Positions 3,640-4,406 of a stretch of DNA of 45,337 nt are shown piece by piece. The first letter of the stretch is position 1. Every line of letters starts with the position of its first letter. Where the stretch lies: the IMG/VR virus record IMGVR_UViG_2718217885_000006. One strand, given 5' to 3'. Made by a program: the position numbers and the translations under genes. The stretch comes from a virus. Taxonomy: Duplodnaviria > Heunggongvirae > Uroviricota > Caudoviricetes. The notes under the pieces are model-generated. The model did not search any database. It saw nothing but the letters and a program-made list of their open reading frames with translations, and was not told the origin of the DNA.

Positions 3640-4221
3640 TTAATGTGTCACTGGCGCTTCTGGCATACCATGAGTATTCAGGTCGTTCATCATTTCATCC
3701 AGAAGGAGTTCAAGCCCTTCGCGCCCCATAGCAGAGACAATGAAACCATTATTAGGATCTGCGATGAGCATTTTTTGATAGAGAAACAGAACTCGCCCCA
3801 TGCCTTCAGCTTCACCATATTTTTCAATAAATCCCCATTCGACATGGTTTTGCAGGGCAATGCGAAGTGGTCCTGGGTATATACTCATGCAACCATGCTT
3901 CCCCTTATAAATAACTGCGCGATCTGTAGTTCCGTTATCGTTAGGGATATCAACAGTGCCGTTCTTGTCTTCCTCTTCATTTATAAATGTTGTCACATAC
4001 AGCCATCGCCATTGAGCAACCTTCATATCGACTGAAAATCGTCCCAGTAATCCGGCATCATCGGCTTCAGCAATACATTGCATAATTCTTAAACCGTGAG
4101 AATTTGGATAATCGTATTCACCATCATTAAGTCGCTGTACGGCCTCAACATAATCAATGGTTGTATTGCCAATTTTTATGCCATGTGGCGTAACTTCTGG
4201 TCGGAAATCTGAATGATTCAT
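3640..4221 (-). CDS. hypothetical protein (193 aa)
   Basis: Start taken at internal ATG (MNHSD...) that overlaps the stop of the upstream 62-aa ORF (ATGA); no recognisable domain by eye. Confidence 0.5.
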   Translation of the reverse strand: MNHSDFRPEVTPHGIKIGNTTIDYVEAVQRLNDGEYDYPNSHGLRIMQCIAEADDAGLLGRFSVDMKVAQWRWLYVTTFINEEEDKNGTVDIPNDNGTTDRAVIYKGKHGCMSIYPGPLRIALQNHVEWGFIEKYGEAEGMGRVLFLYQKMLIADPNNGFIVSAMGREGLELLLDEMMNDLNTHGMPEAPVTH

Positions 4222-4406
4222 AATGTTTGTTCCTTTGCTGGTGGAATAATCGTGTAGCCAGCTCTTTTTGCCATCCACAGAAATGTATCCATGCAGCCAA
4301 CGAATTCATTATCCAACAGATGTTTTGAGTAAATTACTTCACCATTTTCAATGGTTAGCAACACTCTTACTTTTTTATGTGTTATGTTTTGTTGTTTTTC
4401 TTTCAT
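4218..4406 (-). CDS. hypothetical protein (62 aa)
   Basis: ATG start with GGGAG SD 9 nt upstream; translationally coupled to the 193-aa gene. Confidence 0.4.
   Translation of the reverse strand: MKEKQQNITHKKVRVLLTIENGEVIYSKHLLDNEFVGCMDTFLWMAKRAGYTIIPPAKEQTL

Follow-up and report, generated by a model that had tools for sequence, protein, structure and literature searches.

The L06 and L07 genes of a phiP27-like Escherichia coli prophage, their 37-codon neighbour, and the relatives of both families in prophages and satellites

The closest described counterparts of the genes considered here are L06 and L07 of phage phiP27 (NC_003356, P27p06 and P27p07), for which the phage record gives no function. 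We found the same two genes, of 193 and 62 codons respectively, in a window of 45,337 nucleotides, by which we mean the whole stretch of DNA that was analysed. Both reading frames were already known: GenBank has contained them from the time of the phiP27 sequence, and PHROGs has clustered them. The two clusters concerned (PHROG 1515 and PHROG 340) are labelled "unknown function", and the source names of their members are all "hypothetical protein". A few phage records carry the label "2-polyprenylphenol hydrolase", which is evidently spurious. Searches of the literature by accession, PHROG number and Pfam number returned nothing on these families.

Type II RelE/ParE toxin-antitoxin operons share a layout with one common setting of the 62-aa family, whose gene elsewhere lies upstream of, and overlaps, a gene assigned to PF24732. 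However, no PF24732 or other toxin gene is present in the window, and the locus thus lacks the component that defines a toxin-antitoxin module. In addition, the 62-aa protein matches no known antitoxin family or structure, and the arrangement seen elsewhere usually continues with a third gene (PHROG 1886).

A second likeness is to the PICI and P4-like satellites. Gram-negative PICIs are organised into Integration, Bro and Replication zones, with the Bro zone described as a regulatory region in which domains are swapped (PMC10111431). In satellites of this kind, distant members of the 193-aa family are located at the end of the Bro zone, before the primase-helicase gene, and in one element the 62-aa domain is carried on a DnaG-type zinc ribbon. 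In contrast, the window is a full lambdoid prophage, and its 193-aa gene does not immediately precede a primase-helicase gene. To our knowledge no role of the 193-aa family in PICIs has been described; the position of its relatives there may resemble that of P4 Cnr or of the small partners of SCCmec DUF927 helicases.

In lambda, too, the PL operon and the b region (ea, orf61/63, ral, kil) contain small, dispensable-looking genes of low G+C content between the immunity region and xis/int, and they are likewise mosaic between related phages. However, our searches found no sequence or fold relation between any lambda gene and the 62-aa and 193-aa proteins. The Qin ydfABC/dicB cluster of E. coli K-12 occupies what we take to be a comparable position. 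We considered ydfA-ydfB-ydfC-dicB as a counterpart of the cluster described here and rejected it, as there is no homology.

Setting and gene content of the region

The window as a whole is a phiP27-like lambdoid prophage of E. coli without an annotated stx gene. The element adjoins yecE/yecN/cmoAB in the chromosome, and three complete E. coli chromosomes, among them that of strain 09-00049 (NZ_CP015228), match the 1.6 kb surrounding the two genes with 100% identity. Phage phiP27 has 95.7% DNA identity to the same 1.6 kb region, and the gene order int-xis-...-SPFH-L06-L07-L08-HTH-repressor is the same in the window and in phiP27. Past the repressor there are Rha/Ant genes, a DnaC/DnaB-type replication module that is interrupted by IS66, and then the lysis, head and tail genes; the replication genes of the prophage are on the other arm than the 62-aa and 193-aa genes.

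The initial annotation had placed these genes at the position where lambda carries its Red and host-takeover genes, and this placing is borne out, with both genes lying within the arm that runs from int to the repressor (Table 1). It had also found no Exo/Bet/Gam-like protein, and we agree: Pfam and PHROGs reveal none from xis to the repressor, none is annotated elsewhere in the prophage, and the sole recombination-type annotation in the rest of the element is RusA. The G+C content of the region made up of the 193-aa gene, the 62-aa gene and a 37-aa gene described below is 34-43%, compared with 50.6% for the whole window. Acquired accessory genes are usually low in G+C.

Table 1. Coordinates in the window of the features of the early left arm
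Feature	Position	Strand	Remarks
Integrase gene	1-1314		Followed by the excisionase gene and then the early left arm
35-codon hydrophobic micro-ORF, (I/M)KSNRELNRVKLILILATVLTLTEIIILFIALSVG	3487..3594	-	Between the 193-aa gene and the membrane-protein/SPFH pair
AT-rich hairpin GAAGAAT-ATA-ATTCTTC with T-run	3606..3632	-	8 nt past the stop of the 193-aa gene; dG -4.9 kcal/mol
193-aa gene (phiP27 L06, PHROG 1515)	3640..4221	-	ORF with ATG; PGAP CDS WP_024212033.1
62-aa gene (phiP27 L07, PHROG 340)	4218..4406	-	ORF; PGAP CDS in NZ_CP015228
37-aa gene, MTFLKHKASYKTACLIAQHGDSYLHIANLYLRKAYGR	4411..4524	-	pI 9.8; ATG start; Shine-Dalgarno AGGAG; without PGAP annotation here
True intergenic region, L08 to 37-aa gene	4525..4602	-	78 nt; five-phage alignment
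L08 (PHROG 5451)	4603..4974	-	PGAP calls only the 68-aa C-terminal part, 4603-4809
LexA-type repressor gene	5485-6216		End of the early left arm

The 62-aa and 193-aa reading frames overlap by ATGA, as had been reported, with the start codon of the 193-aa gene (ATG, 4221-4219) and the stop codon of the 62-aa gene (TGA, 4220-4218) interlocked on the minus strand. PGAP calls exactly these two frames in NZ_CP015228, and each has a Shine-Dalgarno sequence, which reads GGGAG in front of the 62-aa gene and AAGGA in front of the 193-aa gene. In comparisons with relatives of 50-80% identity, at which synonymous changes approach saturation, the 62-aa gene has a dN/dS of 0.06-0.28 and the 193-aa gene one of 0.14-0.19. 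Because of this purifying selection and the many homologues, we regard both frames as real genes rather than chance reading frames. In the old phiP27 record, which dates from about 2002, the start of L06 is placed at a GTG further upstream, which gives 212 aa, and that of L07 likewise at a codon further upstream, which gives 67 aa. The 193-aa start is preferred over the longer GTG form because the alignments of homologues begin at the same methionine, and such alignments also favour the 62-aa form of L07.

A non-coding gap of about 200 bp (4407-4602) had been described in front of the pair. However, most of this gap is occupied by a conserved gene of 37 codons, which leaves a non-coding remainder of 78 nt. 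The 37-aa protein is 73-97% identical across a set of five phages that includes the window, phiP27, PhiR49_2 and Stx1 and Stx2 phages, and the dN/dS of its gene is 0.07-0.13. It is annotated as a CDS in three of four records (PhiR49_2, Stx2_EH2201 and Stx1_14040), the phiP27 copy being unannotated, and it has no PHROG or Pfam match. Within the phiP27/Stx group, the gene that precedes the 37-aa gene is always L08. In the window, the spacer between the 37-aa and 62-aa genes is 4 nt and that between the 62-aa and 193-aa genes is -4 nt, and each gene has a ribosome-binding site of its own. The latter junction varies among 84 related loci: 54 share the -4 nt of the window, 28 have +5 nt and two have -14 nt.

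The pair had further been thought to lie behind an intergenic region of its own. This idea finds no support, as the gap is largely coding and no promoter-like site was found in the 78 nt that are left: a consensus scan, which is a crude method, detected no sigma-70-like promoter or terminator there. The predicted fold of these 78 nt is unremarkable (z -0.84), an AT-rich hairpin that they contain after the L08 stop is not conserved, and Rfam gave no match over 3400-4700. A block of 13 nt (ATCGCCGGGGATT, 4556-4568) is invariant among the five phages, and its surroundings vary.

On the other side of the trio, the AT-rich hairpin that follows the 193-aa gene is kept in phiP27 and Stx2_EH2201 and is absent where the gene has other downstream neighbours. 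It was missed by a scan for GC-rich terminators, and could act as a weak terminator or mark where an mRNA ends. The micro-ORF beyond it begins with ATA in three sequences, namely the window and two loci with the same version, and with ATG in 40 related loci that include phiP27.

The two protein families

The 193-aa protein matches the PHROG 1515 profile over its full length (E 2.4e-92; residues 1-193 on profile positions 12-203 of 203). It is an acidic (pI 4.8), soluble alpha/beta protein, and its AF2 model has a pLDDT of 89.9 and a pTM of 0.85. No counterpart of the modelled fold was found in the PDB or in BFVD (Foldseek against BFVD, E <= 0.001). An exhaustive profile search yielded 138 representatives of the family at the 50% clustering level, nearly all of which are stand-alone proteins of 190-220 aa. 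Members share the motifs LDxGxYD, WRWxVAxxF and YPxxERxxLAxxIE as well as the C-terminus G(L/I)PxxPxxH, whose final histidine is retained in at least 90% of them. The corresponding tail of the window's protein, which is conserved, ends in NTHGMPEAPVTH. In a large lineage of Stx phages the tail is gone as the result of a 1-nt deletion, which argues against its being essential. PHROG 1737, considered as a possible paralogue of the C-terminal half, gave an hhalign probability of 9%. The product of a 127-aa satellite gene does match this half (E 1e-7), and in one satellite such a partial paralogue lies just upstream.

The 62-aa protein likewise matches its PHROG profile over the full length (E 3.2e-24; residues 2-61 on profile positions 15-74 of 85), and the phiP27 copy is 98% identical to it. 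The protein is basic (pI 8.9), with a core that consists of a beta-hairpin and a helix and with the motifs TIENG and DTFxWMAxRAGY; its structure model has a pLDDT of 83.7. The family is found in Escherichia, Klebsiella, Salmonella, Citrobacter and Enterobacter. In a satellite-like element (our locus L194) the 62-aa domain forms part of a 134-aa protein, in which it is C-terminal to a DnaG-type zinc ribbon, PF01807 (hhalign 96%, E 3e-9), and a longer subfamily of the 62-aa family has an additional N-terminal motif in common with this fusion. Weak matches (E 4.5e-5 to 4e-3) connect the family to the C-terminal parts of the anti-repressor clusters PHROG 4792 and 2379. One cluster of the family (P0074) combines an N-terminus of the ParE-linked type with a C-terminus of the phiP27 type; by its sequence it looks like a recombinant, which would be consistent with exchange within the 62-aa gene.

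The initial annotation recognised no motif in either protein, and our searches of Pfam, NCBIfam, PADLOC and the sequences in the PDB were empty for both. Nothing was matched either when the family profiles or 60 members of the large family served as queries, and at E 1 PADLOC had no match for the two proteins or their neighbours. Remote-homology and structure-based searches, which had been suggested as a check, uncovered no relative of known function and no homology to recombination or housekeeping proteins. A match to bS6 over 36 residues (E 0.029) was set aside as a chance similarity.

Gene neighbourhoods in prophages and satellites

Loci were gathered separately via each family, using the 193-aa protein for the one set and a broader 62-aa alignment for the other. 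The 80 closest loci found via the 193-aa protein always have the order L08, 37-aa gene, 62-aa gene, 193-aa gene. The 62-aa set comprises 90 loci from prophages of Klebsiella, Citrobacter, Enterobacter and other E. coli. Here the gene right after the 62-aa family belongs to PF24732 in 82 loci, to PHROG 1886 in four, to ORF6N in one and to the 193-aa family in one, and in the remaining two there is no family after it. Of the loci surveyed, 85 of 90 and 78 of 79 have the 37-aa gene upstream of the 62-aa family.

The PF24732 gene ("ParE-like toxin domain") encodes 72 aa and is overlapped by the 62-aa family gene upstream of it. The designation as RelE/ParE-like is that of Pfam PF24732 only, and no solved ParE or RelE structure matched the gene by sequence. 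In all loci with available upstream DNA, the ParE-like gene is preceded by the 62-aa family, and the usual string of genes is the 62-aa gene, the RelE/ParE-like gene and PHROG 1886. Since the ParE-like gene also occurs without PHROG 1886, the tightest pair is that of the 62-aa gene and the ParE-like gene.

Only 28 of these 90 loci have the 193-aa family anywhere downstream. In other prophages its gene follows a PHROG 1886, ParE-like, SPFH or ORF6N gene, and in Morganella prophages and most satellites there is no nearby 62-aa homologue. We considered whether the upstream genes found elsewhere (the ORF6N protein, PHROG 1886 and small satellite genes) could be disguised 62-aa homologues; they proved not to be. 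The 62-aa gene is frameshifted in two Stx2a phages in which the adjoining 193-aa gene is intact.

The initial annotation had presented the two genes as a coupled pair. They overlap in the window, but a conserved two-gene unit is not what the survey reveals: a ParE-like gene is what usually follows the 62-aa family, and the 193-aa family also occurs without the 62-aa family. Because the ParE-like and PHROG 1886 genes are absent in the phiP27/Stx group, the 62-aa gene abuts the 193-aa gene there, and judged from gene order the ATGA-coupled pair is a junction specific to the phiP27/Stx lineage and not a self-contained system. Among phage records that have the 193-aa gene, 35 of 36 also have the 62-aa family, and both families are present in the PICI-like L194. 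The co-occurrence in phages may reflect shared ancestry, the phages being related. However, given this co-occurrence and L194, there may still be a functional link between the families.

Five distant relatives of the 193-aa protein were looked up, and all five are upstream of a primase-helicase gene of the DUF927 or P4-alpha type, from which they are separated by zero to three small genes. Eight metagenome loci (L196-198, L201 and L246-249) have the same arrangement. The elements around the distant relatives consist of int, AlpA, Ash/Bro-N/ORF6N, small genes, the 193-aa relative and the primase-helicase, often with SSB and ProQ, and these satellite-type elements match the Integration-Bro-Replication layout (PMC10111431). 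In prophages, the genes after the 193-aa gene often include an ORF6N gene and one for a PHROG 3007 protein that has weak sliding-clamp-like matches. In the window, no primase-helicase, clamp-like or ParE-like gene is adjacent to the 62-aa or 193-aa gene. The positions of the 193-aa family weakly suggest a role in replication or early regulation rather than in recombination or immunity evasion; we count gene neighbourhood as weak evidence here because the elements are compact and consist of one operon.

Probable roles and alternatives

The simplest reading of the region is that it is the middle of a leftward early operon that runs from the repressor side towards int. The 37-aa, 62-aa and 193-aa genes would be co-transcribed with the upstream L08 and HTH genes, and their translation would be coupled. 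The 62-aa and 193-aa genes would be independent accessory cassettes that have been juxtaposed in the phiP27/Stx lineage. As for the 62-aa protein, it may be a small binding or adaptor domain that acts as a neutralising or regulatory partner of the RelE/ParE-like protein where one is present, and that doubles as a C-terminal module on the DnaG-type zinc ribbon. The layout of the 62-aa and ParE-like genes is like that of a type II toxin-antitoxin operon, and therefore suggests that the 62-aa protein is such a partner and that its phiP27 copy is an orphan. The 193-aa protein, in turn, would be an acidic, soluble factor with an effect on the machinery of DNA replication or of early regulation, possibly via its conserved C-terminal tail; we propose this role because its older relatives precede the primase-helicase of satellites and because its neighbours in prophages are of the Bro-network or clamp-like kind. 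Taken as a whole, with the trio in a leftward early operon, the cassettes independent and the roles as proposed, we give this explanation an even chance of being correct. The three genes themselves are ordinary accessory early genes of a lambdoid prophage that had already been catalogued.

Other readings have to be weighed against it. Anti-defence genes are common in the early leftward accessory region of lambdoid phages, and lambda Ral and Gam and T7 Ocr are early inhibitors of host immune systems. One or both of the proteins could be anti-defence or anti-restriction factors that block host immunity early in infection or induction. Their location in this region, low G+C content and cassette behaviour in variable slots would fit such a function, as would a 193-aa protein that is acidic and lacks a housekeeping homologue or fold match. 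However, at a Pfam E of 0.1 there is only one match, to DUF1980_C and below threshold, with ArdA, KlcA/ArdB and Ocr not recovered; PHROGs gives neither protein a function; and the occurrence of the 193-aa family right before the primase gene of satellites would be unusual for anti-defence. We consider an anti-defence role possible but unlikely. The two genes might instead belong to a network of Bro proteins and antirepressors, as interaction domains that stand alone and modulate either repressors or the cross-talk between helper and satellite. The weak matches of the 62-aa family to anti-repressor clusters point in this direction, ORF6N, Bro-N, Ash or Rha genes usually flank the 193-aa gene in prophages and PICIs, and domain swapping is characteristic of the PICI Bro zone (PMC10111431). 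Nevertheless, Pfam detects no Bro-N, KilA-N, ORF6N, ANT, AntA or Rha domain in either protein, comparison of the 62-aa profile with the ORF6N proteins of the surveyed loci gives an hhalign probability of 0.1% and is negative by BLAST, and neither family has a member with known repressor-binding activity, so that we find membership of such a network rather unlikely.

A module common to lambdoid prophages and PICI/P4-like satellites, in which the 193-aa and 62-aa proteins together have an unrecognised, replication-linked function and a new fold, is in our estimate distinctly improbable. Such a module could, for example, supply a factor that binds or modulates a primase-helicase or the host replisome, and the copy in the prophage might then serve in helper-satellite conflict or in the take-over of host replication. 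It is very unlikely that the genes form a toxin-antitoxin or abortive-infection module in which the small basic 62-aa protein neutralises a toxic 193-aa protein. A small upstream gene with an ATGA overlap to a larger downstream gene is what such a module would look like, the 62-aa family is in the antitoxin position before the RelE/ParE-like gene in 82 of 90 loci, and the two families are together in nearly all phage records that have the 193-aa gene. However, the 193-aa family does without a 62-aa homologue in Morganella prophages and most satellites, the two Stx2a phages have kept the supposed toxin gene intact next to a frameshifted antitoxin gene, PADLOC is empty, and the model of the 193-aa protein is unlike any toxin fold. 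The site between xis and the immunity region, combined with the absence of Exo/Bet/Gam homologues from the entire prophage, might also bring to mind a non-homologous substitute for lambda Red, that is, an annealing protein, an exonuclease or a RecBCD inhibitor. We give this hardly any credence: Pfam and PHROGs contain no RecT, ERF, Rad52/Sak, Sak4, exonuclease or Gam/Abc match to the proteins, and many lambdoid prophages simply have no Red genes.

We therefore return to the reading of an early operon that has gathered independent accessory cassettes. The value of the analysis is in part corrective, in that there are three genes and not two, that they have no evident promoter of their own, and that the junction of the 62-aa and 193-aa genes appears to be lineage-specific. 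It also provides two leads. A prophage RelE/ParE-like gene has its constant upstream partner in the 62-aa family, whose member in the window would be an orphan. The 193-aa family, which is present both in prophages of the Shiga-toxin type and in PICI/P4-like satellites, has a confidently predicted fold with no detected relative. If either lead is true, it would add a new component to the biology of prophage toxin-antitoxin systems or to the control of phage and satellite replication in pathogenic E. coli.

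Sequences flanking the 62-aa and 193-aa genes

We identified several features on either side of the gene pair that phiP27 carries as L07 (62 aa) and L06 (193 aa), which are listed in the table with others of the window. In the intergenic stretch downstream of L08, a short block is invariant among five phages, and the intergenic sequence around it has diverged in the same phages. Further upstream, the family phrog_4836 (CII-like regulators) matches L08 with its N-terminal part and the adjoining HTH protein with its C-terminal part. Related Stx phages have one longer annotated transcriptional regulator where the window has the HTH gene.

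The spacer on the other side of the pair carries a micro-ORF that begins with ATG in 40 related loci, phiP27 among them, and with ATA in the window and in two loci with the same version. In relatives it encodes MKSNRELNRVKLILILATVLTLTEIIILFIALSVG. No CDS is annotated for it in the window's genome or in the phage records inspected, and a Pfam search with it returned no match. The hairpin in this spacer, which may be a weak terminator, is kept in phiP27 and in the Stx phage Stx2_EH2201, and is missing where the 193-aa gene has different neighbours.

Features of the window and of related loci
Feature	Position	Strand	Remarks
Gene pair for 62-aa membrane protein (PHROG 1130) and SPFH/Band-7 lipoprotein	2451-3463	-	ATGA overlap
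Hydrophobic 35-codon micro-ORF	3487-3594	-	inside 176-nt spacer 3' of 193-aa gene; conserved
AT-rich hairpin GAAGAAT-ATA-ATTCTTC with T-run	3606-3632	-	just 3' of 193-aa gene stop
13-nt block ATCGCCGGGGATT	4556-4568	-	invariant in five-phage comparison
L08 (PHROG 5451) and adjoining 144-aa HTH protein gene	4603-5381	-	
isrK	8672-8748	+	Rfam, E 7e-12
C4 antisense RNA	8773-8860	+	Rfam, E 7e-15
IS66 element (tnpA, tnpB, tnpC)	about 13085-15673		insertion between DnaB-like helicase gene and RusA
DnaG-type zinc ribbon (PF01807) and domain homologous to 62-aa protein	L194:222-626		134 aa
PHROG 3007 members	L003:6584-7177, L006:6590-7183, L013:7658-8227		

Variants and cassettes in related elements

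The following variants come from related locus L008 (3840-4599) and other Stx-phage loci. The 62-aa gene is frameshifted in two Stx2a phages. A 1-nt deletion in a large Stx-phage lineage leaves the 193-aa protein without its conserved C-terminal ...APVTH, so that it ends in ...PEGQ. The zinc-ribbon fusion protein of L194 is encoded by a PICI-like element. The PHROG 1130 and SPFH genes move as one cassette, found in different slots in many related prophages.

Members of PHROG 3007, a family labelled "RusA-like Holliday junction resolvase", were found in three related loci, where their weak matches are instead to the beta-clamp domain of DNA polymerase III and to processivity-factor families; the label may be wrong.

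RNA elements and other regions of the window

The IS66 element adjoins a frameshifted gene. Long overlapping ORFs occupy both strands at 6480-7300, a region annotated on the plus strand by PGAP and on the minus strand (L13) in the phiP27 record.

The matches to isrK and C4 antisense RNA lie inside a Rha-family gene, in its 5' part, and a ProQ/FinO-family gene (8230-8622) directly precedes them. This arrangement is the P1/P4-type RNA immunity layout, which has been reported for Bro-network genes (PMC10111431).
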